Assembly (NCBI GenBank): GCA_001785865.1
Contig: MFUZ01000006.1
Coordinates: 176,880 to 240,879, forward strand
Length of the DNA: 64,000 nucleotides
Direction: 5' to 3'
Origin: Candidatus Nomurabacteria bacterium RIFCSPLOWO2_01_FULL_41_18
Lineage (GTDB): Bacteria > Patescibacteriota > Minisyncoccia > Phycocordibacterales > UBA9973
Both the position numbers and the translations under genes were made by a program. The notes beneath the pieces are model-generated. The model was given only the letters and a program-made list of their open reading frames with translations. It was not told the DNA's origin and made no database searches. Below, piece by piece: positions 8,824 to 53,351 of the stretch (position 1 is its first letter; each line of letters starts with the position of its first letter).

Positions 8824-9837
8824 CTATTTTTTACTTAAAACTGTTTTCTTATATACATCCAAATGCTCCAATGCTATGCCTGTGCCCTTTACCACACAAA
8901 AAAGAGGATCTTCGGCTAAGGCCGCCTTTACCCCAGTTTTCCTGTAAACCAAATCAGTAAAATTGCGCAATTGAGACGAACCTCCGGTCATAATGATTCC
9001 TTGATCTATGATGTCGGAAGCAAGCTCGGGTGGAGTTTCTTGCAGTACATCTTTGATAGCTTGTATTATTTGTTTTAATTCTCCGTCTATGGCTTTAACT
9101 ATCTCATTTGTACCTACTCGCGCAGAACGAGGCAATCCCTGAATATAATCTCTACCCTTGATAGTAACATTAAGTTCTTCTTCCAAAAGTACAGCCGCAC
9201 CGATTTTTATTTTTACTTCTTCCGCTGTCCTGTCACCTATTGCTAGATTGAAGGTTTTTTTAATATAATCTGCTATTGCTTGATCTATTTTATTTCCGGC
9301 ACATTTAACTGATTTGGAAGAAACTATTCCGCCGAGCGATATAACTGCCACATCCGTCGTTCCTCCACCTATGTCCACTACCATATGCCCTCTAGACTCG
9401 TAAATCGGTATCCCAGCGCCAATAGCAGCCAAAATGGGTTCTTTGACGACATATGCATTCTTTGCACCTGCACGTATTGCGGCCTCTATTACAGCTCTGC
9501 GTTCTGTGCTGGTGACTCCGGCAGGTACTGAAACCATCACATCTGGTTTAAAGAAATTGAATCGCCCCATCGCTTTATTTATAAAATAACGAAGCATGGC
9601 TTCTGTCACACGATAGTCAGCAATCACACCGTCTTTCATCGGACAATAAGTAATGATGGATTCAGGGGTTTTGCCGATCATATCCTTGGCTTCGAAACCG
9701 ATAGCTAGAATCTTGTTGTCTTGCTCAGAAACTGCTACCACCGAAGGCTCGTTTAAGATTATCCCCTTGCCAGGCAAAAATACCAAGGTATTCGCTGTTC
9801 CTAAATCTATGCCTAATTTTTTCGTAAAAATACCCAT
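8824..9837 (-). CDS. mreB: Rod shape-determining protein MreB
   Basis: Actin-fold motifs GIDLGTANT and DIGGGTTD. Confidence 0.9.
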   Translation of the reverse strand: MGIFTKKLGIDLGTANTLVFLPGKGIILNEPSVVAVSEQDNKILAIGFEAKDMIGKTPESIITYCPMKDGVIADYRVTEAMLRYFINKAMGRFNFFKPDVMVSVPAGVTSTERRAVIEAAIRAGAKNAYVVKEPILAAIGAGIPIYESRGHMVVDIGGGTTDVAVISLGGIVSSKSVKCAGNKIDQAIADYIKKTFNLAIGDRTAEEVKIKIGAAVLLEEELNVTIKGRDYIQGLPRSARVGTNEIVKAIDGELKQIIQAIKDVLQETPPELASDIIDQGIIMTGGSSQLRNFTDLVYRKTGVKAALAEDPLFCVVKGTGIALEHLDVYKKTVLSKK

Positions 9838-9875
9838 TTAACTAATATATATTATTTTTGTGTTAAAATCAAAGA

Positions 9876-10229
9876 ATGAAAGATAAGGAACAAGAAGAGA
9901 AAAAAGAAGAAAAAGATCTTGAAAATAATTTAAAAAATCCATTTGCAGGATATTTAGATAATTTAAAAAAACATAAGCAAGCAGTGAACCCTGTTCACGA
10001 AATCGTAAACTGCTATTACAAAATGAACGGCTGGGAAAAGATGCCTAAAGATTTTTATACCGGCCGATATGCCTACAACAAGCTCGCTAGTGAGGCAAAA
10101 AAATTATATATAGCTTGTAGCGAAGAACTTGATGATTGTATTTGGGCGTTAGATAAAATGAAATACTTGGCAGAAAAAGGTGGCTTTGATTGGTCTATAA
10201 TTACCTGCTTGAAACATAAATTGAAATAG
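9876..10229 (+). CDS. Hypothetical protein
   Basis: 117-aa ORF with a Lys/Glu-rich N-terminus and no recognisable motif. Confidence 0.45.
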   Translation: MKDKEQEEKKEEKDLENNLKNPFAGYLDNLKKHKQAVNPVHEIVNCYYKMNGWEKMPKDFYTGRYAYNKLASEAKKLYIACSEELDDCIWALDKMKYLAEKGGFDWSIITCLKHKLK

Positions 10230-10263
10230 TATATATTTTAATAAATCAACCGAAAGGAAAATT

Positions 10264-10446
10264 ATGCTAAGTTGGTTCTTTCCCGCCGAGGGAGAGGGAT
10301 CCGTCCCTCAACACATTGAGTTGTTTGAACGCAAAGTTGTGGAGCATGATTTGGATATTGGAAAACCAGCGGTTCTCGAGGTGTTGAATTCTCATCACGA
10401 CAATCGCCCAGCCCAACGCATTCCCCACGATCTCGAAAGCAAATAA
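10264..10446 (+). CDS. Small hypothetical ORF (60 aa), GC-rich
   Basis: RBS-like aaaggaaa 7 nt upstream, and followed by a hairpin terminator. It could be non-coding. Confidence 0.3.
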   Translation: MLSWFFPAEGEGSVPQHIELFERKVVEHDLDIGKPAVLEVLNSHHDNRPAQRIPHDLESK

Positions 10447-10462
10447 GATCATCTCAATCAAT

Positions 10463-10500
10463 GGACGCACGGAGAACCCGATGCGTCCGCCCTTTTTTAA
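10463..10500 (+). terminator. Rho-independent terminator hairpin GGACGCA...TGCGTCC plus T-run
   Basis: ggacgcacggagaacccgatgcgtcc gcccttttttaa. Confidence 0.55.
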
Positions 10501-10501
10501 G

Positions 10502-10531
10502 TACGTAATGTATTACGTAATACATTACGTA
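10502..10531. repeat. 30-nt perfect palindrome TACGTAATGTATTACGTAATACATTACGTA, overlapping the rsmI stop codon
   Basis: The sequence equals its own reverse complement. It lies in a convergent intergenic region. Confidence 0.7.
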
Positions 10532-11214
10532 ACGATGACTGTAAATTCCCCTCTTTGTTTTTCGGGATTTTTATTAAGATATTCTAAAACTTCAGCAGGT
10601 GAGCCAGTTTTTAATTCTTCATAGATTTTTGTAAGTTCGCGCGCAATGCAGACTTTTTTAGTTGGGCAAAATTTTACAAGCGATTCTAGGGTTTTTAAAA
10701 TTCTGTGAGGGGATTCGTAAAATACCATAGTTCTCTCCGATTCAGCAATTTCTTTAAACAAAGTTTCTCTCCCCTTTTTGTGTGGTAAAAATCCAAGAAA
10801 AGTAAATTCATGCGTTGGCAATCCTGATGCAGAAAGTGCAGCAATGACTGCTGAAGGACCAGGAATCGGAATCACATCTACGCCATGGCTGAAATGCGTT
10901 TTGATCTTGTTTATAAGCATTGCCCCTGGGTCTGATATCCCCGGCGTACCCGCATCCGAAACCAACGCCAGATTTTTCCCCTGCTCTAATAATTCAAAAA
11001 TTTTATCTATCTTTTTAGCATGGCCTGCCCGGCTGTAATCGTCAGACGGGTAGCTCATAGTCGGCTTATTTATATTATATTTATCTAAAATCTTTTTAGT
11101 CTCCCGGGTGTCCTCGCACAATATCAAATCCACGCTTTTGAGCGTCTCTATCGCCCGGAGCGTAATGTCCCCCATATTTCCTATCGGGGTTGCGACGATG
11201 TAGAACTTTGCCAT
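10525..11214 (-). CDS. rsmI: 16S rRNA (cytidine1402-2'-O)-methyltransferase
   Basis: Tetrapyrrole-methylase fold motifs YIVATPIGNMGDIT, EDTRETKKIL and SDAGTPGISDPG. Confidence 0.85.
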   Translation of the reverse strand: MAKFYIVATPIGNMGDITLRAIETLKSVDLILCEDTRETKKILDKYNINKPTMSYPSDDYSRAGHAKKIDKIFELLEQGKNLALVSDAGTPGISDPGAMLINKIKTHFSHGVDVIPIPGPSAVIAALSASGLPTHEFTFLGFLPHKKGRETLFKEIAESERTMVFYESPHRILKTLESLVKFCPTKKVCIARELTKIYEELKTGSPAEVLEYLNKNPEKQRGEFTVIVT

Positions 11215-12312: not shown

Positions 12313-14420
<2,108 letters not shown>

Positions 14421-19820: not shown

Positions 19821-19896
19821 ATTAACGAGCTTTCTTTTTTGGACGCGTTTTGCGTCGCTTTATATTTACAATATGAGAAAAGGCGAATTTGTCAAG

Positions 19897-19968
19897 TGAG
19901 TGTGGAAGGAATCGGACCTTCGACCTCTGTCTTATCAGGACAGCGTTCTACCACTGAACTACACACTC
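19897..19968 (-). tRNA. tRNA-Ile (anticodon GAU)
   Basis: rc = GAGTGTGTAGTTCAGTGGTAGAACGCTGTCCTGATAAGACAGAGGTCGAAGGTCCGATTCCTTCCACACTCA. It folds as a cloverleaf with anticodon loop CTGATAA. Confidence 0.85.
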
Positions 19969-20130: not shown

Positions 20131-20451
20131 TTAGTATTCTCTTCGTCCGCCTCCTCCCCCATAACCTCCTCGGTCATTGCCTCCACTTCGTGGTGGACGA
20201 GCTTCCATAGGGCGAGCTTCGTTGACAGTAAGTTTGCGTCCTTCGAATTCTTGATCGTTGAACATTGAAATAGCTTTACCAGCCTCATCTTGCGATGACA
20301 TTTCTACGAATCCAAAACCTTTTGAACGACCAGACATCTTGTCCATAATAATCACAGCGGATACTACTGATCCAGCTTGTGCGAAGAGCTCTTTGAGAGC
20401 ACCTTCTTGAGTGCTGTAAGGGAGTCCCCCTACATATAGCTTTGTAGCCAT
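20131..20451 (-). CDS. Glycine-rich RNA-binding protein (RRM domain)
   Basis: RNP2 LYVGGL, RNP1 KGFGFVEM, and a C-terminal RGG/GGYGGGGG tail. Confidence 0.85.
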   Translation of the reverse strand: MATKLYVGGLPYSTQEGALKELFAQAGSVVSAVIIMDKMSGRSKGFGFVEMSSQDEAGKAISMFNDQEFEGRKLTVNEARPMEARPPRSGGNDRGGYGGGGGRREY

Positions 20452-20660
20452 AACTTATTTCTTCCTTTTTTAATAAAAAGGACAAAAAACTATTTATAAA
20501 CCCTCCCAAGGCGGGCGGGCGTAGAAAACTCTTTTTCGCTAAATGAGACCCTACAGGAAAAGCATACCATATCTGAAATGAAAAGCAATAATTGTGTATA
20601 AAAAGGAACAGGTCGCCTGATTTTATTCAAGCAACCCGGTCTTGCAATTCAAAAATCTAA

Positions 20661-21209
20661 TTAAAATTTGCGTTTCCAAACCACAAACAAGCTACGACTT
20701 TGTGTGGTTTGTCCAACCGACGACACAGGGTACTCATCCCTGTACTGAACCTCGATCCCTTTCAGCCACGATCTTTGCCGAAATGAAAAGATATCCAGTT
20801 TCTCCCTCTTGTCTGGGGTTCGGACAGAATTCATCCCTACCCCTTCCCACGCATTTTCCGGCGTTGCTTTTGATAGCATTTCTGCCGACTTTAGCGCTTG
20901 TGCTTCTTCGACGATGTCAGTTTTTGTGAGAAACAATTTCGCCGTCGAAGTCGCCGAAGCAACTGAAACTTTAGGTTTTGGCTGAACCGACGAGGTTTCG
21001 ACTTTCTTCTGCGGAAGCCTGGGTTCATAAAGCACCATTTGCAAGTCCTTCCAGGTTTTTTCATTCCTCATCTCCATCAAGTTCCATGAGGATTGATAGT
21101 CGTTGCTCGCCACAACCACGACTTTGTTTGTGCTCGCTTTCACAGTCACTACGCAAGCAACGAGACCAACCGCAACCAACACCAGCATCCGACTGAATGT
21201 AGTCTTCAT
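20661..21209 (-). CDS. Secreted hypothetical protein (signal peptide), in a GC-rich block
   Basis: N-terminus MKTTFSRMLVLVAVGLVACVVTVKAS. Local GC is about 50%. Confidence 0.5.
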   Translation of the reverse strand: MKTTFSRMLVLVAVGLVACVVTVKASTNKVVVVASNDYQSSWNLMEMRNEKTWKDLQMVLYEPRLPQKKVETSSVQPKPKVSVASATSTAKLFLTKTDIVEEAQALKSAEMLSKATPENAWEGVGMNSVRTPDKREKLDIFSFRQRSWLKGIEVQYRDEYPVSSVGQTTQSRSLFVVWKRKF

Positions 21210-21339
21210 AGTTTTTTCGGTTTAGGGGGTTTAGGTTTGGAACGTCTTGGATTGTCAAAAAGACCAATCTGAGGAATAGTCTAGCACTTTTATAAAAATT
21301 TGCATCTAAATTTTATTAAGAAAATTAATACAAAAAGTA

Positions 21340-21372
21340 AAGGCCGGTTGCTTTCGCAACCGGCCCGAATCA
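21340..21372 (-). terminator. Hairpin GGCCGGTTGC-tttc-GCAACCGGCC downstream of the 395-aa secreted protein gene
   Basis: Perfect 10-bp stem. Confidence 0.55.
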
Positions 21373-21430
21373 TGATAGTCATTATTTTTGGTCTACACTA
21401 GACCATCTCGACTCAAGGTCGAGCACGAGG

Positions 21431-22618
21431 TCACTTTTCCTCAATGATGACTGGCGTAACTGCGCCACTGCCACCACGATACGAATTATATGGAGACTCA
21501 AAGGTCGAGTCTTGGAAATTCCACCAAATCGGGATCACGTGGTATCGCCCGATTGAGAAGTCCAACTCGAGATCCTCGTTCCAATTTATCGGAAACTCAC
21601 CGGAATCGCCTGTTGCGACGTTAACGATGATCACTTTTTGAGCTGTCTCGCCTTCTGAAGTGCGAACCACCAAACGAACACCGCTGACATTAGAGGTGTA
21701 AGTGACTTCCGTCAGGATGTCACTACCTCGCCTGTACTCGGCCTCGGGTCGTATGACGATTGTGTTCACATTGGTCAGGACTTGTGTCCCTTCAATGGTC
21801 GGACGTACGTTCGCATGCACTTCTCCGACTTTGCTTGCTGAACCAGATGGAACATCAAACGCAATTTGATTCCAATTGCTGTCAATGGCAACAATCACCG
21901 ATCTGCTACCGATAACATTCCTTGGAATGAGAAATCCTCCATTGCTGTCGGGAGAAAGCCAGATAGGCTCTCCACCGTCTTCAGGAAAGATTTGTAAATA
22001 GCGAGCGCCGGGAACAGTGACACGAATGTTCTTTGCAATTGTCACTTCAGGATCTTTCCCATACAGAGACCACCGCATTACCCCATTCGTCGGCTGTGGA
22101 TAGTCCTGATACGTGTACTTCTCCGAACTGCCCTCGAAAAGAGCAACCCAGTTTGTATCGAGATATTTCACAGTGACAGTGACCCGCCCACTTGTGGCGA
22201 TTGGAAACGAAACCTCGACGCTTGCAACGGTGTCACTCATCTCGTCGATCGAGGGCGAAAGACTCGAATAACTCCAACCCCAGCTGTAGCCACCGGAGGC
22301 GACCATGACCGGAGATCGGAATTCAAGATCCAAGTTGCTGACTCTCCTCAGCGCCCACGACATAAACGCAGGCTTCGACTGAAACATCCACAGATTGGAT
22401 GCCACGGTTTCAACCGTGAGAATCTGGTTGGACGCCGGCACCGACACCACGTTGGTTGGCAACGTAATTGGGGTCGGCATGTTCCCAAAGCAGGACTGAC
22501 CAGTGGTTACAGAGAACCCGTTGGTCCGATCACCGCAGCCAGGAATTGTTTCGGCGTTGATAGTGAATACCGCGACCGTCATCCCAATGACGGCAACTAA
22601 CGTTTTGATTGCTTTCAT
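21431..22618 (-). CDS. Secreted hypothetical protein (395 aa, signal peptide), GC-rich
   Basis: N-terminus MKAIKTLVAVIGMTVAVFTINAET. No recognisable domain. Confidence 0.55.
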   Translation of the reverse strand: MKAIKTLVAVIGMTVAVFTINAETIPGCGDRTNGFSVTTGQSCFGNMPTPITLPTNVVSVPASNQILTVETVASNLWMFQSKPAFMSWALRRVSNLDLEFRSPVMVASGGYSWGWSYSSLSPSIDEMSDTVASVEVSFPIATSGRVTVTVKYLDTNWVALFEGSSEKYTYQDYPQPTNGVMRWSLYGKDPEVTIAKNIRVTVPGARYLQIFPEDGGEPIWLSPDSNGGFLIPRNVIGSRSVIVAIDSNWNQIAFDVPSGSASKVGEVHANVRPTIEGTQVLTNVNTIVIRPEAEYRRGSDILTEVTYTSNVSGVRLVVRTSEGETAQKVIIVNVATGDSGEFPINWNEDLELDFSIGRYHVIPIWWNFQDSTFESPYNSYRGGSGAVTPVIIEEK

Positions 22619-22678
22619 TTATTTCAGTTCTTGGTTGTATTTCTTTGTTGTTCTTATTTACGGTTTTTTGTCTTGAGT

Positions 22679-22960
22679 TTACTTGTCGCTAAACGTCGGA
22701 CGAGTCCGCGTGTTCACGACGTTTGTTGAGTTGACTGCCACCACCACTGGACCCGTTCCACCCACCGGTGCAAGTTCCTTTTTCAGAAACTCCTCCAGCA
22801 CTGGTGAAGGTGCCACGGAAACTGACACAACCTCCTGTTTTGGTTCAGGCACCGGCGCAGTTTCAGCAACCGGCGAAACCGGCCCCAGGCACGTTGTGTA
22901 CCAGACTCCAACTCCACACAGGGCAGTTAGAATTATCCAGACTTTAGTCGATTTATTCAT
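22679..22960 (-). CDS. Small signal-anchored hypothetical protein (start MNKSTKV preceded by GGAGG), GC-rich
   Basis: An internal Met with a strong RBS. The longer track ORF would overlap prfA. Confidence 0.45.
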   Translation of the reverse strand: MNKSTKVWIILTALCGVGVWYTTCLGPVSPVAETAPVPEPKQEVVSVSVAPSPVLEEFLKKELAPVGGTGPVVVAVNSTNVVNTRTRPTFSDK

Positions 22961-23078
22961 AATTTCCTCCGTTCGGTTCCAACAGTCCTCACAGACACAA
23001 AAACACACTCCTTGATCGCCAAGCGAAAAGAAGTTGTCTTTATCGAGCCCTAAAGTCAAGGGCAAAATACCCTTCATT

Positions 23079-24047
23079 TTAGTCGCTTTCCTCGTTTCCA
23101 ACCACCCCAGAATCTATAGCTGTAATGATATCCCCGATATCGCCTTCCATTATTTTAGGCAGATTATGCCAGGATTTCTTTATACGATGATCTGTCACCC
23201 GGTCTTGTGGAAAATTGTAGGTGCGGATTTTTTCTGATCTGTCAGCTGTGCCTATTTGCTCTTTGCGATCACCCGCATATTTCTTTGCTTCTTTCTCTTC
23301 TTCAAGTTGCTGAAGTTTAGCTGTCAAAATAGCCATCGCCTTTTCTCTGTTTGCAAGCTGACTTCGTTCATTTGTGGAACGCACATCGAGCCCTGTCGGC
23401 TTGTGGATGATACGCACAGCCGTCTCAACTTTGTTTACATTTTGTCCGCCCTTTCCGCCAGAGCGAGAATATTCCATTTCAAATTCTGAAGGATCAATTT
23501 TTACTGTAACTTTTTTCCTAATGGGTAGAACTGCCACCGACGCAGTGGAAGTGTGTATCCTGCCATTTTTTTCAGTCGCAGGCATTCTCTGCACTCTATG
23601 CACGCCCGTTTCATAACGCATTTTATCGTAAATATTTTTTCCTTTTATTTCAAAACTCGCCTCCTTGTAGCCATTCAAATCACTTTTAGATTCATAGTTG
23701 ACTCTCCACTGCCAACCTTGAGCTTCTGAAAACTTCTCATACATATGCGCGAGCTCCCACGCAAAAAGAGATGCCTCGTCTCCGCCGGCGCCTGCCCGCA
23801 CTTCTAGTACTATCTCATTAGTTATCTCTTCTTCTATTTTTTCTTTATCTAAAATTTCTTGAACTTGTTTTTCTATTCTTTCTCTTTCTTCTTGAATAAA
23901 TTTTAATTCTTTTGCTGCCATTTCGTGCAAGCTGTCATCACCCGAGAGCATCTCTCGCACTTCAGCTTCTTCTCGCAAAATTTTTTCTAGCATTTCTGCT
24001 AGATAATTTGTTCTGTGATCTTTCTTAAGTTCAGATATGTCCAACAT
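23079..24047 (-). CDS. prfA: Peptide chain release factor 1
   Basis: PAT tripeptide (RMPATEKNGRIHTS) and GGQ motif (SGGKGGQNVNK). Confidence 0.9.
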   Translation of the reverse strand: MLDISELKKDHRTNYLAEMLEKILREEAEVREMLSGDDSLHEMAAKELKFIQEERERIEKQVQEILDKEKIEEEITNEIVLEVRAGAGGDEASLFAWELAHMYEKFSEAQGWQWRVNYESKSDLNGYKEASFEIKGKNIYDKMRYETGVHRVQRMPATEKNGRIHTSTASVAVLPIRKKVTVKIDPSEFEMEYSRSGGKGGQNVNKVETAVRIIHKPTGLDVRSTNERSQLANREKAMAILTAKLQQLEEEKEAKKYAGDRKEQIGTADRSEKIRTYNFPQDRVTDHRIKKSWHNLPKIMEGDIGDIITAIDSGVVGNEESD

Positions 24048-24289: not shown

Positions 24290-25669
24290 TTATGATGAAA
24301 GCAAATCGATGTTGGCCTGGATGGAAGCTTTCAGCCTTGCCACACTTTGGCTGTATGAGCAGGAGATTCCTCCGGAACCGTAATATTTGCACGCGGCAAT
24401 ATTTTGAGCGCTGGCGCTCGTACCTATGCCCCCTAGATCCGTCAAGTACATGGAAGAAGCCATGAAAGCATCTTTCGGTTCCCAAGGACTCGCGTCGCGG
24501 CCAAGCAAATTTCGGAGGCGCCCTTCAAACAAAGTCCAGGTAGTAGGAATGAATTGCGCAGGACCCATGGCGCCTCCGTATCCTGCCACTCCCGCGATCG
24601 GACAAGAAATTGCGGTCTGGTTCCAGACTAGGCCGAGCTTTGAAGTGATGCGAAGGAAGTCTTCCACATCCCCTTTTCTTCCTGGCATACCCATCGGTTT
24701 CATGACATTCGAGAAAGGCGTTCCAGTGTTCTTGCCTATCCCCGCTCCAGTCGTCTGGTTTGTGAGATAGCATTGTCCGACGTTTGAACCCAGATTGCTC
24801 TCCTGTGTAAGAATTGCGAGAAGAAAAGCGGGCTCAATGCCGGTAAGTTTTTGAGCCTCTTGCGCGTAAGCAAGCGCTGTGCCAAATTCAATCTTCTGCG
24901 AAGTGTTTGCGAGCGGGAACAAAGCGCTCCTAATCCTGTCGGCCCTTGCTTTCTTTTCTGCAGCCAACTTTTGATAAGCAGCTTCGGTCTGCTGGGAAAT
25001 AGAGAGAAGTTGCCTCTTTTCAGCTTCAGAAACAGCTACTTTTTTTTGAGCGCTTTCGAGCTCCGCTTTCGCGTCAGTCTCTGCATTTTGCTTTTTCTCC
25101 AGATCCTGCTTGGCGACTTCGGTCTCTTGCTTAACCCCTTTGATCATATCCACTGAATCTTTTACTGCTGCCTTGAGTGAAGTATAGGATTCGAGATCAT
25201 TATAAAAATTAGAAAGATTGTCGTCAGAAAGAATGAGGTGCACTATATTTTCATTATCATACTCATTTGTATTCCGCAATAATTGGGCCAAGGATTCATA
25301 TTCGCGTTCTATCTTGCTCGAAAGAGAATTGATAGTTTTGGCTTTCTCGGTGATATTGATCTTCAGTTGAGCAATCACGAGCCCCCTCGCCTTGATTTTG
25401 GCTTTTAGGGCATTTATCTGGCTGTTTAAATAATTCACATCTCCGGTCAAGGTACCGGTTTGCTTTTGCTGCTGTTTCTGTAAGTCAAGTAACTTGGCGA
25501 GTTCCGCTTCTATCTGCGAAAGTTCGTTCTTGCAATAATTTTTATCTGACTCGCTTGAAGAAGGAGTGAGTTTAAGACAATCAAAAGCAGCCTCTCCTCT
25601 CACTAAGGGAAAGATTAATAATCCACTAAACAGTAAAAAGCTAACAAAAAATACGGTATTTCTAACCAT
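24290..25669 (-). CDS. Secreted coiled-coil protein with a C-terminal lytic transglycosylase (SLT-like) domain
   Basis: Signal peptide, a long Q/K/E-rich coiled coil, and a C-terminal FLLAILTQESNLG (catalytic Glu) domain. Confidence 0.6.
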   Translation of the reverse strand: MVRNTVFFVSFLLFSGLLIFPLVRGEAAFDCLKLTPSSSESDKNYCKNELSQIEAELAKLLDLQKQQQKQTGTLTGDVNYLNSQINALKAKIKARGLVIAQLKINITEKAKTINSLSSKIEREYESLAQLLRNTNEYDNENIVHLILSDDNLSNFYNDLESYTSLKAAVKDSVDMIKGVKQETEVAKQDLEKKQNAETDAKAELESAQKKVAVSEAEKRQLLSISQQTEAAYQKLAAEKKARADRIRSALFPLANTSQKIEFGTALAYAQEAQKLTGIEPAFLLAILTQESNLGSNVGQCYLTNQTTGAGIGKNTGTPFSNVMKPMGMPGRKGDVEDFLRITSKLGLVWNQTAISCPIAGVAGYGGAMGPAQFIPTTWTLFEGRLRNLLGRDASPWEPKDAFMASSMYLTDLGGIGTSASAQNIAACKYYGSGGISCSYSQSVARLKASIQANIDLLSS

Positions 25670-26427: not shown

Positions 26428-28182
26428 TCAGACCTTATGCTTCGCGTCATGCTCGATAGCAATATGGTCTGTGATATATTTTTTTGTTCCTTCCTCTTCA
26501 GTAGGCACTTTTTTCCCTGGATTTAAAATGTTTAACGGATCGAAAATTTTCTTTATTTCCGCAAAGAGCCGTATTATCTCTTTTGGATACATTTTGTCGA
26601 GATATGGAGTGCGGATGATGCCATCATTGTGCTCCGCAGTAATTGAGCCATGGTATCTCCCCACCAAGTCATAGACTTTGTCTGAAAGCTCCATAATAAT
26701 CTTAGCGGTACCTGGACGCTTGAAATCCATCAGCGGAATGATATGGAAATTCCCGTCTCCGGCATGGCCGGCTAAGGTAAACATAAGATCGTATCCGCTT
26801 AATATCGCGTTTAACTCCGGAAGGAACTTCGGCAAAAATTCTGGGCGAACGATCACATCATCGATAAATGGAGCAGTACGCATACCTTTGACATGCTTCC
26901 GAAGGAGCGCAAAGCTCTCTCGGCGGATATCCCAATATTTATTCGCTTCAATTTCTGATTTAGTTATATGAACTTTCAACCCCGACGCATTAGGTTGGGA
27001 TCCCGACTTTATGTCGGGATTAAAAATTTTCAACCTTGATTTTAATACTTGGCATTTTTTATCAACTTCCTTTTCATCATTACCGGCAAACTCAGCCAGA
27101 ATAATTAATTTAGGAAAACCATCTTTAAGCATAAGAAGCGCTTCCGGCAAAAAACTCCACATGAATTTAAGCATTCCCAAAATTCCTTTGTTCTTGAGAA
27201 AATCCGGGAAAAATTTGACCGCTAGCTTCATAGTCTTGTCATCATATGTTTCGAGAGTTTCCGGGTTGAGGGTGAGGATCTCTTCCACCAAGCGCCCGAG
27301 CGGGCCTATGTCGTTCACAAAGATGGCCACAAGCTTGGAATATTTGTTCTCTGGGATCACCTTGAAAGTAATCTCTGTGACAATACCCAAAGTGCCCTGT
27401 GAACCGACTAATAATTTATTGAGATCAAATGCATACCCTTCGGCTCCGCTCAGGGTCTTTGGCTTTTGGCCTTCGACATTCCAAATATAATATCCAGCAG
27501 AATTCTTGCTTACTTTTGGTTTTGCGTGTTGTATTTCTGATTCATTATTTTGTATTAATGAAAATATATTTTTATAAACATTCCCCTCAAAATCGTTCTG
27601 AGTAATCTTTTTATTTAATTCTTGTTTATTGAGTGGCTTTACGACATATTCATTACCATCAGCAAAGACCACTTTGGCTTCTAAAATATAATTTTCAGTT
27701 TGACCGTATTTTAAAGTTCTCTCGCCAGCAGAATTGTTTCCAAACATGCCACCCATGGCATTTATACTTTTTGAAGCCGTGTAGCACGGCAAAATCATTC
27801 CTTTTTCTAAAGTTATTTTTTCAAAATCTCTATAAAACATCCCGGGTTGAACGGCAATTTCCCATATAGACTTTGTTTTCATGGGTAATGGCCCGCCAAT
27901 TAATTTATTCATGTACCGAGTGAAATCCAAAATAATAGATTCACCTATCGCTCCCCCCGACATATCGGTTCCGGCACACCTCGCTGTGATAGAAAGATCC
28001 GGATACTTTTGTTTATTTTCATTTACCCATTTAACTAAATTTTTCACATCTTCCGAATCTTTTGGAAAAAGCACAATTTTAGGCCGCACTTCAAGTAAGC
28101 TCGCATCATGCGAATATTTTAAAAGCGTTTCTGCATCATCCTCCACATCTCCCCTAAAAAATTTTTGTATTTCGGGTTTCAT
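26428..28182 (-). CDS. FAD-linked oxidoreductase (GlcD / D-lactate dehydrogenase family)
   Basis: PCMH-type FAD-binding N-terminal domain and a C-terminal FAD-oxidase domain (HAGDGNFH). Confidence 0.7.
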   Translation of the reverse strand: MKPEIQKFFRGDVEDDAETLLKYSHDASLLEVRPKIVLFPKDSEDVKNLVKWVNENKQKYPDLSITARCAGTDMSGGAIGESIILDFTRYMNKLIGGPLPMKTKSIWEIAVQPGMFYRDFEKITLEKGMILPCYTASKSINAMGGMFGNNSAGERTLKYGQTENYILEAKVVFADGNEYVVKPLNKQELNKKITQNDFEGNVYKNIFSLIQNNESEIQHAKPKVSKNSAGYYIWNVEGQKPKTLSGAEGYAFDLNKLLVGSQGTLGIVTEITFKVIPENKYSKLVAIFVNDIGPLGRLVEEILTLNPETLETYDDKTMKLAVKFFPDFLKNKGILGMLKFMWSFLPEALLMLKDGFPKLIILAEFAGNDEKEVDKKCQVLKSRLKIFNPDIKSGSQPNASGLKVHITKSEIEANKYWDIRRESFALLRKHVKGMRTAPFIDDVIVRPEFLPKFLPELNAILSGYDLMFTLAGHAGDGNFHIIPLMDFKRPGTAKIIMELSDKVYDLVGRYHGSITAEHNDGIIRTPYLDKMYPKEIIRLFAEIKKIFDPLNILNPGKKVPTEEEGTKKYITDHIAIEHDAKHKV

Positions 28183-28874
28183 ATTCTGTCTCGATATTTT
28201 ATGAAATCATTAATAAATAATCTATATAATGCGGGAGTAATTTTTTTTATCTCTTCCGCCCACTTTCGTACAATTTCCATTTCGCTATTAAAATTAACCC
28301 TAGACATATAAAAAAGAGTTGCGAAAGGAATAAGATCTGGTTCGTCTTTCAATCTTTCAATTTTTTCATCTTCTGAAACCATTAAAACTTGTGGCTTTAT
28401 TCTATCTCTATATGCTCCTACAGTTTTGGGATATATTTTATCGTATGCTTCAATCGCTGTTTGCGGTAAGCCAGACATTCTACCCATTTCCCAATAAATT
28501 TCTGGATCTCTTTCATGATTACCATAATCGGGCCTAGACCAAAAATGTGATATTAAATCTAAGTCCTTTTGATTATTTGCAACAAGACAAATTTTACCCG
28601 GTCTTGATCCTCGTATTCTTATATTCAATACTGGACCTTCATTAAACAACATACCAGCCTTTTCAACTCTTTCTTTCAAGTCACGTAACACTGATTCTGG
28701 CATGCCAAGTTCAAGAGATACCGCAGTGGCTGTTTTTAACCCCTTCCAAACAAGCACAAGAAAAACTCTATCTTTTGGCTCTAAATGTTGAAAACTCTCC
28801 AACGAAGTTGCTATTTTGTGTTCTTCTGCATTTAATTCTCTTTTTTGTTGTCCAACACTATCAGGTGTTTTCAT
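28179..28874 (-). CDS. Hypothetical protein with a sigma-70 region-4-like HTH
   Basis: The segment LEPKDRVFLVLVWKGLKTATAVSLELGMPESVLRDLKERV. Confidence 0.4.
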   Translation of the reverse strand: MKTPDSVGQQKRELNAEEHKIATSLESFQHLEPKDRVFLVLVWKGLKTATAVSLELGMPESVLRDLKERVEKAGMLFNEGPVLNIRIRGSRPGKICLVANNQKDLDLISHFWSRPDYGNHERDPEIYWEMGRMSGLPQTAIEAYDKIYPKTVGAYRDRIKPQVLMVSEDEKIERLKDEPDLIPFATLFYMSRVNFNSEMEIVRKWAEEIKKITPALYRLFINDFIKYRDRI

Positions 28875-29446
28875 AATTTTTTATTTAAATACTTTAAAAT
28901 CACAGCCACACTTCTGTCCTCCTTCATTTTACCAGATAGTGCTAATTCTTTTAATTCATCTTTAGAGATTTTTTTGACTTCTATTTTTTCATGTTCTTCT
29001 AGTTTCTGTCCAACTTGTTCATATTTTTTAATTACAAAATAATACAAATCCCACTCAAAACTACCTCCGCATTTAGAAATACAAAAAAATTCCATTTCAA
29101 TAGGTTTTACGCCCACTTCTTCCATTCCTTCTCTGATAACAGCAACTTTCACTTTTTCTAGAATTTCTTTTTGATTTTTTGGGTCTTTCTGTTTTACTAA
29201 AAAATCATTGTACTCAATCAAGGAATCAAAAACTTTTCCACCTGGTAATCTAAAATCTATACCTAAACCAAATCTTTCTTCTTTGCTTATTAAAAATTCA
29301 CCATCTGGGGTTTCGATAATTAATCGCACTCCTGGAGCCCTGCGTCCTTTTTCTAACACAATTTCTTTACCATTTGGAAAAAGAGTCTCGTGAACTATTT
29401 CTATCATTTTTCCTTGATAAACTATTTTTTGATTTTTACTTTGCAT
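28871..29446 (-). CDS. NUDIX hydrolase
   Basis: Nudix box ...REGMEEVGV. Confidence 0.75.
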   Translation of the reverse strand: MQSKNQKIVYQGKMIEIVHETLFPNGKEIVLEKGRRAPGVRLIIETPDGEFLISKEERFGLGIDFRLPGGKVFDSLIEYNDFLVKQKDPKNQKEILEKVKVAVIREGMEEVGVKPIEMEFFCISKCGGSFEWDLYYFVIKKYEQVGQKLEEHEKIEVKKISKDELKELALSGKMKEDRSVAVILKYLNKKL

Positions 29447-31883: not shown

Positions 31884-32564
31884 TTACTGCCTTTGAATTC
31901 TTTCTTGGACAATTTTTCCGTCGTCCAAATGAACTATGCGCTCGGCGAATTTGCTGTATTCTTCCTCGTGAGTCACCATAATGATAGTCTGGCCTCCTTT
32001 ATGTAGTTCTTTAAAAATATTCATGATGATACGGGAGGATTCGTTGTCGAGATTCGCTGTCGGCTCGTCGGCAAACAATATCTGCGGTTCATGTGCGATC
32101 GCCCGAGCGATGCTCACTCTCTGCTGTTCTCCGCCGGAGAGCTGGCTCGGCAAATTAAAAAGCTTTTTATCTAGTCCGATTTTTGAGAGAGCCTCGCCCG
32201 CCTTTTTATAGGCCTGCTTTTCCGAAATATTCTGCATCAAGAGAGGCAGAGCCACATTTTCGATTGCATTCATTTCAGGCAGGAGCGCATAGTCCTGAAA
32301 AACATACCCTAACTTGGAAAGACGAAAGTATGTCTTTTCACTGATTGAGAGTGAGTTCATATTTTTATTGTCTATATAAATATCCCCCTCGGTTGGCTCG
32401 TCGAGTAGGCTCATCTGGTAAAGAAAAGTGCTTTTCCCTGCACCGGAACGGCCCATGATTGCGATGAACTCCCCGCCTTTCGCTACAAAATTAATTCCTT
32501 TCAGAACTTCTGTCACAGTTTCTCCATCTTTGAATAATTTTTTTAAATTTTTTACTTCAATCAT
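31884..32564 (-). CDS. ABC transporter ATP-binding protein (MacB/LolD-type)
   Basis: Walker A GRSGAGKST, signature LSGGEQQR, Walker B ILFADEPT. Confidence 0.85.
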   Translation of the reverse strand: MIEVKNLKKLFKDGETVTEVLKGINFVAKGGEFIAIMGRSGAGKSTFLYQMSLLDEPTEGDIYIDNKNMNSLSISEKTYFRLSKLGYVFQDYALLPEMNAIENVALPLLMQNISEKQAYKKAGEALSKIGLDKKLFNLPSQLSGGEQQRVSIARAIAHEPQILFADEPTANLDNESSRIIMNIFKELHKGGQTIIMVTHEEEYSKFAERIVHLDDGKIVQERIQRQ

Positions 32565-32569
32565 ATAAT

Positions 32570-33826
32570 TTAATTTCTGCCTAAAATGGAATCTAATGTA
32601 TTTTTACGGACGATGAGACGCGCGGGGATAAACCCGGCCACTATCGTGGTAAACATCAATAACCCCACTCTAAATAACGTACCACCGACCGGGGCTACCA
32701 ATATACCGTCGCTGAAAGGAAAATCTATCGGATGCGCCGCGATAAATGGTTGGAGCACACCGTAAAGCACGAGAATGCCTATGACGGAACCGCAAAAAGC
32801 ATAAAAGAAGGATTGTAATATATAGGAGATCTCGATTGCCCTCTCATTGATGCCGATTCCTTTCAAAATTCCAATAAATTTTCTTCTGGTAATTGCATTG
32901 ATGAAAATCACAATGAAAATAGTGATCGAGGCGACGACCAGACCGATGGAAGAAAGCATGTTTCCGAGCAGAGCAAACGTGTCGATCATATCTTTTATGA
33001 ACTTCGGCTGCGCATCGGCATATGTTTGGACCTTGGCTACGCGGTCGATCCCATTCTGTTTGAGAATATCGCGGACAACTTCTGGATCGGTGCCAGGTTT
33101 CAGTTTGATGGATATTTCATCTACGTTGTAATCATTGCGCCCGATAATGCTGCGAAGCTGAGAATCCACCATGAAGACCCGGAGGCTGACTTCATCCACT
33201 TTCGCTTTAATGATGCCCTTGATAGTGACTTCTCGCTCGATACCGTGCACATTGATACGGATTTTCACGCCAGGAGCCACATTGTAAAGAGTTGTAAATC
33301 CTGGAGAATCGATCGGCAAATATTCGCTATCAAGATAAGCACCAAGCATGACTTGATCATAGTCTGTGGGCGAGAGGTATTCCCCTTCGACTATGAACTT
33401 CGAGAGATTGGTAACCTCGTCCTCAGCCACTGGATCAATGCCGGTCACTGAGGCGACAGCAGTGTTAGGTTTCTCTTTGTCATTGGTTCGCGTCTTGTAA
33501 TTGGCCTCGAGAGTACCGCCTTCCAGATATCGCGCCGAGACGGCTTCCACCTGTGGCAAAGAATTCACAATACTCATAATTTCCGGACTACTCTCTATGT
33601 AAGTTTTGTTATTTAAGGTAGATATGATGACATCACTCGTATAATGGCTACGCACAGCGACTATCGCCCCTTGGATGAGTCCCACCAAGATTCCGCTCAC
33701 CACCACTAAATTAATGAAGGTGAAAAACATTACGAAAATGATAAGAATTGTAGTCCATATACTAGACCTTCTGATTTGCCGTTTCGCCAGAAAAAATCCT
33801 ATTCGAATATTCAATAAAGAAAACAT
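32570..33826 (-). CDS. ABC transporter permease (FtsX/MacB-like)
   Basis: An N-terminal TM helix, a large extracytoplasmic domain, and three C-terminal TM helices. Confidence 0.75.
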   Translation of the reverse strand: MFSLLNIRIGFFLAKRQIRRSSIWTTILIIFVMFFTFINLVVVSGILVGLIQGAIVAVRSHYTSDVIISTLNNKTYIESSPEIMSIVNSLPQVEAVSARYLEGGTLEANYKTRTNDKEKPNTAVASVTGIDPVAEDEVTNLSKFIVEGEYLSPTDYDQVMLGAYLDSEYLPIDSPGFTTLYNVAPGVKIRINVHGIEREVTIKGIIKAKVDEVSLRVFMVDSQLRSIIGRNDYNVDEISIKLKPGTDPEVVRDILKQNGIDRVAKVQTYADAQPKFIKDMIDTFALLGNMLSSIGLVVASITIFIVIFINAITRRKFIGILKGIGINERAIEISYILQSFFYAFCGSVIGILVLYGVLQPFIAAHPIDFPFSDGILVAPVGGTLFRVGLLMFTTIVAGFIPARLIVRKNTLDSILGRN

Positions 33827-44147: not shown

Positions 44148-45449
44148 TTATTTTTTACCGAGCCAGGCATCGTCTTGACGCACTAGGATTTTATTTTTGT
44201 TTTCCTTATCGAGAATTATAGCTTCCACCACCCGCTCGAGGCGCATTTTTTGAGAACCTTTCACTAAGATGAAATCGTTCTTTTTTACAAATGTTTTCAT
44301 AAATTCGCCTGCATCCGCCGCATCTTTGAATTCAAGAATGTTATTCGGATCCATTCCTGCATCTATGGCGCCGGACTTGATAGCTTGCGCCCGCTGTCCC
44401 ACTACGATCAATATATCGCAGTTGTCCTTGGCTAGCCTGCCCACTTTTTCATGCGCTTCTACTGTATGTTTCCCGAGTTCGAGCATGTCTCCGAGCACTG
44501 CGATCTTCCTGTTCTTCGCTCTCACTTCTCCCAGGGTCTTCACCGCTCCCTCACAGGCAAAAGGAGAAGAATTGTAGGTATCATCGATGATCATCGAGTC
44601 GTTTATGCCCTTTAGTAGGCGCATGCGTCCCGGTGGTGCATCGTATTTCTGAAGAGCGTCGATGGCATTGATGACGTTCAGCTTGAGCCCGAAAGCGAGA
44701 GCAATTGAAGCGAGCGAGGCGTATTTGTGATTTTTACCGAATGCTCCGCCGATCACTACCGGCAGACTATTGCCTCCTTTTTCATCCTCTACTCTGAAAA
44801 TTATTCCTTCCGGATCCTCCGAAGCATTGTACAAAATACTCTCCTGAGTTCCCAATACGTCGGCGCCTGGCTTGAATCCAAAAGTAGTCACCAAGCTTTT
44901 AGTTTTGCTCCTCATTTCTGAGACATCTTCGTCGTCGTAATTCAATATCAAGAGGCCGTCTTTTTTTAAAGTTTTAATGAGCTTGGTCTTTTCTTCTATC
45001 AAGCTTTTGCGAGAGGTAAAAAATTCAATATGAGCGGGAGTTTCTCCGATCGTAGTAATGATCACCACGTCGGTCTTGAGCCATAGTGCGGTCTTCTGCA
45101 TATCCCCTTCTTTCCCCACCCCCACTTCGAGAACCAACCATTTCGGATATTTATGAGGGAATAAAAATAGAGACAATCCTTTTAAAATATTCGAAAACCA
45201 AATCCAGGGATTGTTCCAGCCGTTCGGAATGCCTAAAATAGTAAGCGGCAGACCGATTTCGCTATTGTAACTTTTCTCGCTCTTCCTCACATGGGAGACT
45301 CCGGAGAGGACAGCATACACCGCATCCTTGGTGGAAGTTTTTCCGACACTGCCGGTAATGGCAATGATCTTCGGCTTGTACTTGGCGAGTACCAGTCGGG
45401 ATTCCATCTGCAATATGTAGGCTATAATTTTTCTAAATGTTGTTTTCAC
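44148..45449 (-). CDS. murF: Mur ligase, MurF-like (UDP-MurNAc-peptide D-Ala-D-Ala adding enzyme)
   Basis: ITGSVGKTSTKD P-loop, a Mur ligase central domain, and a C-terminal domain. It is the last gene of the dcw cluster. MurE is not excluded. Confidence 0.65.
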   Translation of the reverse strand: MKTTFRKIIAYILQMESRLVLAKYKPKIIAITGSVGKTSTKDAVYAVLSGVSHVRKSEKSYNSEIGLPLTILGIPNGWNNPWIWFSNILKGLSLFLFPHKYPKWLVLEVGVGKEGDMQKTALWLKTDVVIITTIGETPAHIEFFTSRKSLIEEKTKLIKTLKKDGLLILNYDDEDVSEMRSKTKSLVTTFGFKPGADVLGTQESILYNASEDPEGIIFRVEDEKGGNSLPVVIGGAFGKNHKYASLASIALAFGLKLNVINAIDALQKYDAPPGRMRLLKGINDSMIIDDTYNSSPFACEGAVKTLGEVRAKNRKIAVLGDMLELGKHTVEAHEKVGRLAKDNCDILIVVGQRAQAIKSGAIDAGMDPNNILEFKDAADAGEFMKTFVKKNDFILVKGSQKMRLERVVEAIILDKENKNKILVRQDDAWLGKK

Positions 45450-45455
45450 GTTTGA

Positions 45456-47216
45456 TTATGAACGGTCCGGCGGAACATCGTAATAATTTAATAAAAATTC
45501 TGTGATATCTACAAAGGGGTTTCCCCAGGTAGTTGCGGCATAGGACACGCCTTTCGGATTTACGGCATAAAGGAAAACAATAAACTTCGGCTCATAAGCC
45601 GGAAAATAACCGACAAATGAATGAATGTGCACGTCCTTATAATAGCCTCCAGTGGTATGGTCCGCAACTTGCGCCGTGCCTGTTTTTATCGCCACACTAA
45701 AATTATCTATTTTCCCTTGTCCGCTCTTCATCGTCTTATCCATGACACCGACCAGCATCCTGGTTATCTCTTCGGAAGTTTCCTCGCTTATTTTCGTGCG
45801 CGTGGTCGGGTAAGTGAGTTTCTTGGAACCGCCAGTCATGTATCTGATCTCTTTGATGACATGAGGCACCACTAGATTCCCGCCATTTGCGAGCGAAGCT
45901 AGAGCTCGGGTCATCTCGATCGGAGTGAGAGCTATTCCTTGGCCGAAAGCAGCGTTGGCATATTCTATTTCTCGAATATTTTTCAAATTGCTGGTAATAT
46001 TTTTCATCAAGCCACTGGTTTCATTTGGCAGGTCAATGCCAGTTTTTTCATCTAATCCATAGGAGAGCAAGTAGTCGTGCATATTTTGTTTACCCAATTT
46101 GCGAAAAACATAAACCATTCCTGTGTTCAATGATTGATTCAAAACTTCTTGCATGCTTGTACCAGGGCCACGACCTTTTTTGTCAAAATTAGTAATAGGT
46201 TTATTAGTATCTACCATCACCGAACCCTTGTCGTCATAAGTAGTGTTTGCGTTTAATACTCCCGCATCGATCGCCCCCGCCATAACGAGAGGCTTTACCA
46301 CCGATCCGAACTCCATCACGTTTTCTACCAGAGGGTTGGAAAACACAGAGATCTTGTTTTTAGAAAAATCATTCGGATTAAAGTCCGGTTTGGCTCCTAG
46401 CGCATAGATCGATCCGTCCATCGGATCCATAATTATCCCGCCGATAGAATCCACTTTATATCTTTCTTGCACCTCGGTTAATTTCTTTTCCAAAAAACTC
46501 TGCACTTCTGGTTCGATAGTGGTGACCACGTCTCCGCCTCTGTCCGACTGTCTGAATGGGCTGATGTTTGAAAAGACCTCTGCAAAGAAATTCACATACG
46601 GCTTGTCATTATTGTGAGCGAGGACTTCTTCATACTGTCTCTCGAGTCCATAACGCCCGCCCAAATCATTTCCCTTGTAACCGACAAAGCCGAGGGTGTG
46701 GGAAGCGAGCAAACCCCCGGGGTAAAAACGCCATTTCTCCTTGAAGACACTGACACCCGAAATTTTCAGAGCCGTCACCGCATCGGCTTTATCCTTGGAA
46801 AGGCGGTACGCGACTTCTTCGTAAGGATCGCCGACTTTGGATGCCTTCGCGATGAAATCTTCCTGGTCGAGAACTATTATTTTTGACAATTTCAGATAGG
46901 CGGCCTCTTTGTCAGTTATTTTGCTAGGATTGATTGTGACCTTGAATCCGGTGACTTGAGTGGCAGCTGCAATCAGATGCCCTTCTTTGCCATCCCGGCT
47001 TCTGTTTTGAAAGAAAATAGTTCCACGCTCATAAATATTACTTCCGGGCGTGACATACTGACGGTCGGCAGAAGCCGAGTACGTTTCCCCGTGCACCACC
47101 TGCACCATAAATAGCCTCGCGCTCAAGACCAGACTAAAAGCTACGATGAATAAAAGCGTAACTCTTGATCTATTGATGAAACTAAAGGTCATTTTGGACA
47201 ATTTTTGCTCTATCAA
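45456..47216 (-). CDS. ftsI: Penicillin-binding protein (FtsI/PBP2-type transpeptidase)
   Basis: TM anchor, a dimerisation domain, and transpeptidase motifs SVVKP, SNT and KTGTA. Confidence 0.85.
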   Translation of the reverse strand: MIEQKLSKMTFSFINRSRVTLLFIVAFSLVLSARLFMVQVVHGETYSASADRQYVTPGSNIYERGTIFFQNRSRDGKEGHLIAAATQVTGFKVTINPSKITDKEAAYLKLSKIIVLDQEDFIAKASKVGDPYEEVAYRLSKDKADAVTALKISGVSVFKEKWRFYPGGLLASHTLGFVGYKGNDLGGRYGLERQYEEVLAHNNDKPYVNFFAEVFSNISPFRQSDRGGDVVTTIEPEVQSFLEKKLTEVQERYKVDSIGGIIMDPMDGSIYALGAKPDFNPNDFSKNKISVFSNPLVENVMEFGSVVKPLVMAGAIDAGVLNANTTYDDKGSVMVDTNKPITNFDKKGRGPGTSMQEVLNQSLNTGMVYVFRKLGKQNMHDYLLSYGLDEKTGIDLPNETSGLMKNITSNLKNIREIEYANAAFGQGIALTPIEMTRALASLANGGNLVVPHVIKEIRYMTGGSKKLTYPTTRTKISEETSEEITRMLVGVMDKTMKSGQGKIDNFSVAIKTGTAQVADHTTGGYYKDVHIHSFVGYFPAYEPKFIVFLYAVNPKGVSYAATTWGNPFVDITEFLLNYYDVPPDRS

Positions 47217-53321: not shown

Positions 53322-53351
53322 AGATTTGCTTTTTTTTACGCCAGTGCTAAG

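Follow-up and report, generated by a model that had tools for sequence, protein, structure and literature searches.

O-antigen and capsule loci, which are flanked by conserved genes, are examples of replacement flexible genomic islands, and Oliveira and colleagues reportedly described in 2017 integration hot spots at which horizontal transfer concentrates between core genes. Replacement flexible islands, or "metagenomic islands," encode exposed cell structures (Lopez-Perez, Martin-Cuadrado & Rodriguez-Valera 2014, PMC4033161). In Thermococcales, a hypervariable gene module is centred on an immunoglobulin (Ig)-domain protein and is proposed to act in conflict or self/non-self recognition (Makarova et al. 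2021, PMC8416519). We analyzed a 64,000-nt stretch of a Candidatus Nomurabacteria genome (Paceibacterota, Candidate Phyla Radiation or CPR), referred to below as the window, in which a block at 20597..23087 on the minus strand separates prfA from a gene for an RRM protein. A first-pass annotation made from the sequence had singled out the block for its GC content and its three secreted or membrane proteins. The block forms an accessory islet within a hot spot of recombination and insertion that lies between two highly conserved genes. We consider it somewhat probable (about 0.55) that the core of this islet is a co-inherited cassette, consisting of a membrane stalk and a secreted beta-sandwich protein, which forms a variable cell-surface display module with a GC content intrinsic to the family.

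Both flanks of the block are conserved. Upstream lies prfA (peptide chain release factor 1; 23079..24047, minus strand; Pfam PCRF and RF-1), and downstream lies the RRM-protein gene with its promoter and 5' leader (gene 20131-20451, leader 20452 to ~20596, minus strand; Pfam RRM_1). We scanned one genome per species for prfA, which yielded 80 loci with 75-91% amino acid identity, mostly labelled Candidatus Nomurabacteria or Paceibacterota; loci of relatives are numbered L001-L100. The conserved gene order in relatives is L25, SLT-like lytic transglycosylase, L31, prfA, RRM protein and, further on, ATP synthase. Among the 69 loci containing both prfA and the RRM gene, the gap between them is <400 bp in 43 and at least 1 kb in 18, with varied cargo that includes ABC transporters, a low-GC protein of 870 aa, and small proteins of unknown type. 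In four relatives with an empty site (L010, L012, L013, and L022), blastn homology to the window ends at 23088-23092 and restarts at 20588-20596, and the two junction points are only 24-38 bp apart. These junctions therefore define a 2.49-kb insertion in the window, after the stop codon of prfA and ahead of the RRM promoter, a possibility that the first-pass annotation had proposed to check by synteny.

The same site is thus empty in close relatives, as is expected of a classical genomic island, and the base composition of the block differs from that of its host (see below). The combination of mobility gene, tRNA border, and direct repeats that also characterizes such islands is lacking. We found no integrase or mobility domain among the three open reading frames (ORFs) of the block with Pfam and NCBIfam, and the sole candidate for flanking direct repeats is a 24-nt match with 71% identity, which is at chance level. 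A tRNA-Ile gene at 19896-19968 does lie ~0.67 kb away, close to the distance of about 0.7 kb given earlier, but because the RRM gene and its leader intervene, this tRNA is not at the border of the insertion.

The block contains three ORFs, all on the minus strand and at the positions first listed for them: a small gene of 93 aa (22679..22960), a large gene of 395 aa (21431..22618), and an orphan gene of 182 aa (20661..21209). Each of the three proteins has one hydrophobic segment, located at the N terminus (best 19-residue Kyte-Doolittle mean 1.78-2.38, start at residues 5-7), and no second such segment elsewhere, which agrees with the N-terminal signal peptides or anchors read from the sequence at the outset. 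The earlier statement that the proteins have no detectable domains also held, as none of them matched Pfam, NCBIfam, PHROGs, or the defence systems in PADLOC. The small and large genes form one unit, closed by a strong intrinsic terminator hairpin at 21341..21366 (minus strand) that a terminator scan identified by its 11-bp stem with 8 GC pairs and T-run. No terminator was found between prfA and this pair, and cotranscription with prfA is therefore possible. The orphan gene is a separate unit, preceded by a 220-bp AT-rich spacer and followed by a terminator-like hairpin at 20609..20638 (minus strand; same scan).

The large protein belongs to a rare family that has no name. A search of 5.8 billion clustered proteins returned 6 homologues, and a profile search of 1.84 billion proteins returned 47 cluster representatives of 316-420 aa that matched over most or all of their length; a further search with a 45-sequence profile added one member, P0050. 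We defined the family as proteins of 320-420 aa with a signal peptide, preceded by a gene for a small transmembrane protein, and aligned 45 large-protein sequences (alignment A2). The window protein scores 329 bits against the hidden Markov model (HMM) of A2, with a full-length collinear profile match, the T-x-E-G-E-x-A loop, the Gly-rich tail, and the upstream transmembrane gene. Every family member with a source name is annotated as "hypothetical protein," and the source is in each case Paceibacterota or Parcubacteria. Across the 45 members, Pfam gave no significant match, with a single weak hit in one member (E = 0.0011). Scans of metagenome contigs with alignment A1 and with the single protein yielded no confirmed member, and literature searches on Nomurabacteria signal peptides and horizontal gene transfer, and on hypervariable surface islands in Patescibacteria, turned up no paper on the family.

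An AlphaFold2 (AF2) model built from only 6 sequences had a predicted local distance difference test (pLDDT) score of 45 and was unusable, whereas the 45-sequence alignment gave a pLDDT of 85 overall and >90 for residues 60-375. In this model, a signal peptide (…INA/ET) and a disordered N-terminal region with an optional Cys-loop are followed by a helical hairpin (residues 69-90), a mixed alpha/beta segment, two beta-sandwiches, and a disordered Gly-rich tail. The tail ends in …VIIEEK or …GGGKG. Comparing the model with PDB and BFVD in Foldseek gave no hit at E<1e-3, nor did a PDB sequence profile search with the large protein find anything. Lys is scarce in the protein (2.5% versus 9.1%), whose composition favours Val, Ser, Thr, Pro, and Trp. 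In some members only, the Cys-loop (PGCGDRTNGFSVTTGQSC; residues 26-42 of the window protein) separates the signal peptide from the folded part; it has the pattern PGCG(D/C)(R/Q)T.G[FY]S..(T/N)G(Q/E).C and occurs also in L014, L019, and L091. We considered this loop (C…G[FY]S..TG..C) as a common address tag and rejected the idea, since it is confined to four members of the family among the sequences compared.

The large gene is consistently accompanied by the small one. In the window, the 93-aa start of the small gene (ATG at 22960) is favoured by a Shine-Dalgarno sequence, GGAGG, located 5 nt before it, and a longer ORF that reaches 23077 or 23101 is possible but less likely. The small protein has its single transmembrane helix at residues 7-25 and a basic N terminus, from which an N-in, C-out orientation is predicted. 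The predicted extracellular part is a Pro/Val/Thr-rich linker of ~65 residues that ends in a conserved [KR]PxF[SN]D motif, here RPTFSDK within the C-terminal peptide …VVNTRTRPTFSDK. At every locus with readable DNA ahead of the large gene, a small transmembrane ORF (50-152 aa) immediately precedes that gene; L097, whose DNA begins ~360 nt before the large gene, falls outside this count. These upstream proteins have one transmembrane helix and a Pro/Val/Thr-rich stretch, and most end in a similar C-terminal motif (RPTFSDKVD in L008, QPTFSDVVN in L091, KPTFSDKIK in L092, KPNFSDN in L017 and L021, TPKFNDSIK in L007, and NPTFAP in L018). With the small protein as query, phmmer recovered the partners in L008 and L091.

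We used the family HMM to locate the cassette in relatives. A member lies directly after prfA in L014, L016, L017, L018, L019, and L021, the prfA of which is 88-91% identical to that of the window, and another follows prfA in L091; all seven loci are among the nearest relatives. Between allele classes, the large proteins of prfA-linked loci share only 24-33% amino acid identity with that of the window. The comparison of L017 and L019 illustrates the pattern. Their hosts have prfA products that are 97% identical and SLT proteins that are 94% identical, yet their large proteins are only 27% identical. The L019 allele instead shares 71% identity with that of L014 (prfA and SLT of these two are 88% and 69% identical), and the L017 allele shares 73% with that of L021. 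The DNA of L017 and L019 is 85% identical across SLT, L31, prfA, and the next ~170 nt, cannot be aligned over the cassette, and is 81% identical again from the last bases of the large gene. Given the identity of the flanks, the abrupt breaks, and the discordance between host and allele, we conclude that cassettes have been replaced; related genomes swap alleles one entire cassette at a time, for which homologous recombination within the conserved flanks would be the simplest route.

These observations agree in two respects with what is expected of replacement islands. Divergent, non-alignable versions occupy the same locus, and the conserved flanks end in sharp breakpoints and conflict with the alleles they enclose. 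The products of such islands are structures exposed at the cell surface; here, the signal peptide, transmembrane anchor, and beta-sandwich model support export. Different versions coexisting within one species were not seen. Across the block, six same-species contigs (L001-L006) share at least 99.97% identity, a run of scaffold Ns in L004 excepted, and variation of the cassette appears only between species or genera. We dropped an analysis of strain-level variation and of the ratio of nonsynonymous to synonymous substitution rates because these six contigs are essentially identical and the differences in L004 are scaffold Ns.

The family is not restricted to the prfA site. In other Paceibacteria, the pair occupies a second conserved site, in the order ClpB, further genes, the pair, rpmG, miaA, parB, and topA; it is carried there by L007, L092, L096, L099, L100, and one further locus. 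In a Parcubacteria genome of 48% GC, the pair lies among genes for other proteins with signal-like N termini, two genes downstream of a gene for a peptidoglycan-binding protein. The second site and the Parcubacteria member indicate that the family is long established within the group and not foreign to it. The orphan gene has a different history. It had only same-species matches in the 5.8-billion-protein database, and searches of ~90 related loci, hot-spot cargo included, with phmmer, tblastx, and blastn found no relative. It is absent from L091, in which the same allele class of the pair lies between prfA and the RRM gene and the large gene is followed by only ~117 bp. This makes the orphan a later, lineage-specific addition. 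Its GC content at third codon positions (GC3) of 0.536 resembles that of the pair.

We then quantified the composition of the block. The region 20640-23100 has 47.9% GC, compared to a window mean of 40.0%, so the elevation first judged by eye was real, and its size (roughly 50% versus 35%) had been overstated. Among all 2.46-kb windows, this region has the top GC content, ~2.4 standard deviations above the mean, and 0.4% of windows reach its value. The three genes have GC contents of 0.474, 0.507, and 0.532, compared to a gene mean of 0.402 +/- 0.051, and GC3 values of 0.52-0.56, compared to 0.38 +/- 0.09 for window genes. For each gene, we computed the GC content expected from its amino acid sequence and from the synonymous codon frequencies of the window itself. 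Amino acid composition explains about half of the excess (expected GC 0.43-0.49), and synonymous sites explain about the other half (GC3 +0.12 to +0.16); the low Lys content of the large protein and its richness in the residues named above account for the nonsynonymous part. A similar synonymous excess occurs in about ten core genes of the window, namely mraZ, ftsA, ftsZ, murein-synthesis genes, and an ABC transporter, which indicates that GC3 is uneven across the genome.

Any "GC island" of this genome has to be judged with that unevenness in mind. GC3 ranges from 0.15 to 0.57 across the genes of the window. Cell-division genes, cell-wall genes, and the ABC transporter are near 0.5, as at 48492-48935 (mraZ), 52155-54572 (ftsA and ftsZ), 44148-47216, and 31884-33826, and ribosomal-protein and ATP-synthase genes are near 0.3; contrasting examples of low GC3 are found at 13695-14420, 28179-29446, and 573-2930.

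Across the family, GC content is independent of the host. We compared the large gene with its host flanks at 17 loci and found 52.1 ± 2.1% GC (range 47-57%) in the gene and 34-48% in the flanks. The gene exceeded its host in all 17 loci, by 12 points on average (Wilcoxon p = 1.5e-5), and its GC content did not follow that of the host (slope -0.03, r = -0.05). Because alleles that are 20-30% identical keep the same GC content in low-GC hosts, the excess is not the fading donor signature of one recent transfer. High GC is a stable trait of the family rather than the mark of a recent import from a GC-rich donor. Candidate causes are GC-biased gene conversion at a frequently recombining locus, a concept taken from Lassalle et al. 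(2015, PMC4450053), and repeated re-seeding from a pool of Parcubacteria of ~50% GC.

Taken together, these results favour the reading of the islet as a variable surface display module. The small bitopic protein would serve as a membrane-anchored stalk spanning the cell wall, and its conserved C-terminal peptide may hold the large protein (~40 kDa, Sec-exported) at the surface. As a variable surface determinant, the pair could act in adhesion or recognition, or could be what phages or hosts target, and interaction with hosts, partners, or phages may drive its diversification. A role in host or partner interaction, as the first-pass annotation also suggested, is a plausible candidate function. 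The orphan would be a lineage-specific secreted protein added downstream of the cassette.

Several points weigh against this interpretation. No homology to any characterized protein backs a surface-display or adhesin role, and the Foldseek resemblance of the model to tandem Ig, FnIII, or macroglobulin-type domains is not significant. We infer physical contact of the two proteins only from their strict co-occurrence and joint replacement. The pair contains no LPXTG motif, lipobox, SLH domain, or LysM domain; sortase substrates end in an LPXTG motif, a hydrophobic helix, and a basic tail, in that order, and the sole hydrophobic segment of the large protein is N-terminal. The C-terminal Lys that we first suspected of covalent anchoring (Lpp-like or by isopeptide bond) is found in the last two residues of only 22 of the 45 members, and we dropped that idea. 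The case for recombination is built on incongruence and sharp homology breaks, not on dated events, and extreme diversifying selection together with lineage sorting could add to the pattern.

A bolder version of the display module, which we regard as possible but rather doubtful, makes the pair a specificity determinant peculiar to Paceibacterota. A hypervariable beta-sandwich head borne on the stalk would determine to which host or partner cells these ultra-small bacteria attach, or which phages attach to them. Recombination in the prfA and RRM flanks would shuffle its alleles between lineages, and, acting through GC-biased gene conversion, this constant recombination would keep GC content at ~52% in any genome background. 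If this were true, surface variation driven by recombination could be recognized in CPR genomes by GC content itself.

Alternatively, the 395-aa protein could be a secreted effector or bacteriocin-like toxin and its small partner a membrane immunity protein, with strain competition driving diversity. The architecture, a secreted protein next to a small membrane protein, fits this idea, and extreme allele divergence with joint replacement is also seen in polymorphic toxin-immunity loci. The acidic loop conserved across the family, T-[ST]-E-G-E-x-A, could be a functional site. However, Pfam, NCBIfam, PADLOC, and the PDB profile search revealed no toxin, lysin, or enzyme domain. Conservation is evenly low along the large protein, so that a conserved delivery region with a variable toxin tip is not apparent, and apart from the acidic loop the invariant positions are mostly Gly and Pro, which indicates a structural scaffold. 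The long Pro-rich extracellular tail of the small protein would also be unusual for an immunity protein. Overall, we think a toxin-immunity pair unlikely. We also considered TSEGE as a GH16-like catalytic strand and dropped this candidate, given that the model places TSEGE in a loop between strands and that no glycosidase fold was matched.

A further alternative is that the pair descends vertically, evolves fast, and has been lost repeatedly with no exchange, its GC excess being due to selection on protein composition and codon usage. Its conserved positions in two lineages, prfA/RRM in one and ClpB to rpmG-miaA in the other, are what vertical descent would produce, and the cassettes of L019 and L014 have 74% DNA identity, similar to that of their flanks (70-78%). 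The part of the GC excess that stems from amino acid composition is likewise in its favour. The L017 and L019 loci argue against it, because flanks that are 85% identical enclose cassettes that cannot be aligned, and each of these cassettes has a relative of 71-73% protein identity in a more distant host. The codon-usage part of the idea is not matched by the synonymous sites. At the four-fold sites of the large genes, C and G reach 0.293 and 0.288, compared to 0.198 and 0.188 in the hosts; since both are raised equally, the enrichment is unlike selection for particular codons. In addition, the ribosomal-protein and ATP-synthase genes of the window, which belong to classes that are usually highly expressed, have low GC3. 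We therefore regard descent without exchange as distinctly unlikely.

The first-pass annotation favoured horizontal acquisition and took the high GC content as a sign of it. The first part of this proposal holds in the form of cassette exchange; the second, that GC content is the un-ameliorated signature of a recent, GC-richer foreign donor, is in our view quite improbable. Several data would suit such a donor. The block is missing from most relatives, and in the windowed profiles suggested at the outset it is the strongest outlier of the window in both GC content and tetranucleotide usage. It is the most deviant 2.5 kb in tetranucleotides (L1 distance 0.408 versus 0.217 +/- 0.039, z = 4.9), and this deviance survives normalization for base composition (usage correlation 0.49 in the block versus 0.78 +/- 0.07). 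The member in L089, the Parcubacteria genome of 48% GC, is host-like in composition, which would make GC-richer CPR a possible source pool. Against a recent donor, alleles that are only 20-30% identical all have 47-57% GC in hosts of 34-47%, and the excess must have either persisted for long or been renewed continually. All members that can be attributed, by source organism or by flanking genes, belong to Paceibacterota or Parcubacteria. No integrase, att-like repeats, or tRNA border was found, and the IMG/VR scan, PHROGs, and BFVD (E<1e-3) gave no viral relatives. Half of the excess is, moreover, amino acid composition. The first-pass annotation had also reasoned that a block similarly GC-rich in all relatives would speak against import; such richness is indeed present in the relatives that carry the cassette, and most others lack the block altogether.

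The weakest explanation, that the ORFs and notably the orphan are spurious frames in GC-rich noncoding DNA, is very improbable: high GC does produce long overlapping ORFs on both strands of the block region, and the orphan has no homologue outside its species in any search, but for all three genes codon statistics rank the annotated frame first of six, far ahead of the rest. Both units close with a terminator hairpin, and a clear signal-like segment stands at the N terminus of the orphan. For the small and large genes, the conservation as proteins across many genomes, the frame scores, and the confident AF2 model of the large protein refute the idea.

We made several additional observations in the neighbourhood of the hot spot. 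L033 (11011-11633) and L015 (11669-12288) share a low-GC two-gene cargo in the prfA-RRM interval, encoding proteins of 69-70 aa and 136 aa, the latter starting MKY(K/P)YLTVLN(S/N)DPNGKHFRRP…; judged by size and arrangement only, this might be a toxin-antitoxin-like or retropepsin-like pair. In L014, a 398-aa ORF (9506-10702) follows the cassette, with 58.6% GC and a GC3 of 0.72 in a host of ~39% GC. It occupies the position that the 182-aa orphan has in the window and is a different cargo; by eye, its N terminus resembles an NAD-binding oxidoreductase (Gfo/Idh/MocA-like). On the other side of prfA, a gene at 24290-25669 (minus strand) encodes a 459-aa secreted protein that adjoins L31 and prfA in all relatives. 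The N-terminal half of this protein is a long coiled coil with weak SMC- and EnvC-like matches, and the C-terminal half has a weak SLT_2 lytic-transglycosylase match. The 3' part of the gene (24300-24750) has 54% GC and forms the second GC peak of the neighbourhood.

The promoter of the RRM gene and its ~110-nt 5' leader (20452-20596, minus strand) are 74-87% identical in DNA sequence across more than 20 Nomurabacteria. The leader contains two hairpins. The first, GTAGnnTCTC…GAGnnTCTAC, encloses an invariant TTAGCGAAA loop, and the 3' arm of the second includes the Shine-Dalgarno sequence (GGAAGAAG or GGGAGAAG). The second stem shows compensatory changes: at one pair, U-A (21 sequences) alternates with C-G (15), and at another, U-A (14), G-C (11), and C-G (6) occur. 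The leader had no Rfam match. Cold-shock and rbp-type leaders are reported as thermosensor or autoregulatory elements, and the RRM leader could, from its predicted pairing, be an element of either kind. Some genomes have an extra GC-rich mini-hairpin between the two leader hairpins, which in the window lies at ~20500-20520 (minus strand) and reads CCCGCCCGCCTTGGGAGGG. L014 and L062 instead have a different GC-rich insert, located within the loop of the second, Shine-Dalgarno-sequestering hairpin. The conserved RRM leader therefore has variable expansion segments, which we saw in the window, L023, L037, L039, L014, and L062.

CPR bacteria, or Patescibacteria, are thought to live attached to other cells, and to our knowledge the molecules that mediate attachment and specificity are unknown for most CPR lineages outside Saccharibacteria. 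Predicted export, a predicted fold unlike solved structures, extreme variability, and swapping at a fixed site make the pair a concrete candidate for surface recognition. The cassette is compact and easily recognized, and such a role is open to study by localization, binding, and co-occurrence with hosts or phages. With ~52% GC in genomes of 34-48% GC, it is also a natural test case for whether biased gene conversion, selection, or transfer maintains local composition, and it serves as a warning that a GC anomaly alone is no proof of recent foreign origin.

Compared with described systems, the cassette is most like replacement flexible islands. It occupies the same position in relatives with very different alleles or cargo, it has conserved flanks, abrupt loss of homology, and atypical base composition, its products are predicted to be extracytoplasmic, and its replacement would proceed most simply by homologous recombination in the flanks. 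It differs from them in size, comprising two genes and ~1.6 kb where these islands typically span 10-50 kb, and in encoding proteins rather than enzymes of glycan synthesis. Unlike those islands, it is GC-rich and not GC-poor relative to the host, it is missing altogether from most relatives, and the same-species contigs are identical, with no strain-level replacement seen. The prfA/RRM interval resembles core-gene hot spots in gathering diverse accessory cargo across relatives; unlike them, no integrase or transposase was seen in the cargo listed for this interval, in which no systematic search was aimed at such genes.

Two further comparisons concern the proteins themselves. As described, the Thermococcales module is similar in being lineage-restricted, with a hypervariable beta-sandwich or Ig-like protein and variable neighbours. 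That module is archaeal, its protein is much larger, its partner genes are others, and there is no sequence relationship; the two were compared by description only. Like wall-anchored proteins of Gram-positive bacteria, the pair combines a signal peptide, tandem beta-sandwiches, and a Pro-rich segment that may span the wall, although here this segment is on the partner. Unlike them, the large protein lacks an LPXTG motif with a C-terminal transmembrane helix, a lipobox, and any SLH, LysM, or peptidoglycan-binding domain, and anchoring, if any, would be through a separate small membrane protein, which is not described for those families. The locus is therefore of a kind already known, a small replacement islet of exported proteins at a core-gene hot spot. 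What appears new is the family, unnamed and unmatched in Pfam, NCBIfam, PHROGs, and PADLOC, with a predicted fold that has no significant solved or viral match; neither its architecture of two genes nor its GC content independent of the host is described in the literature that we found.

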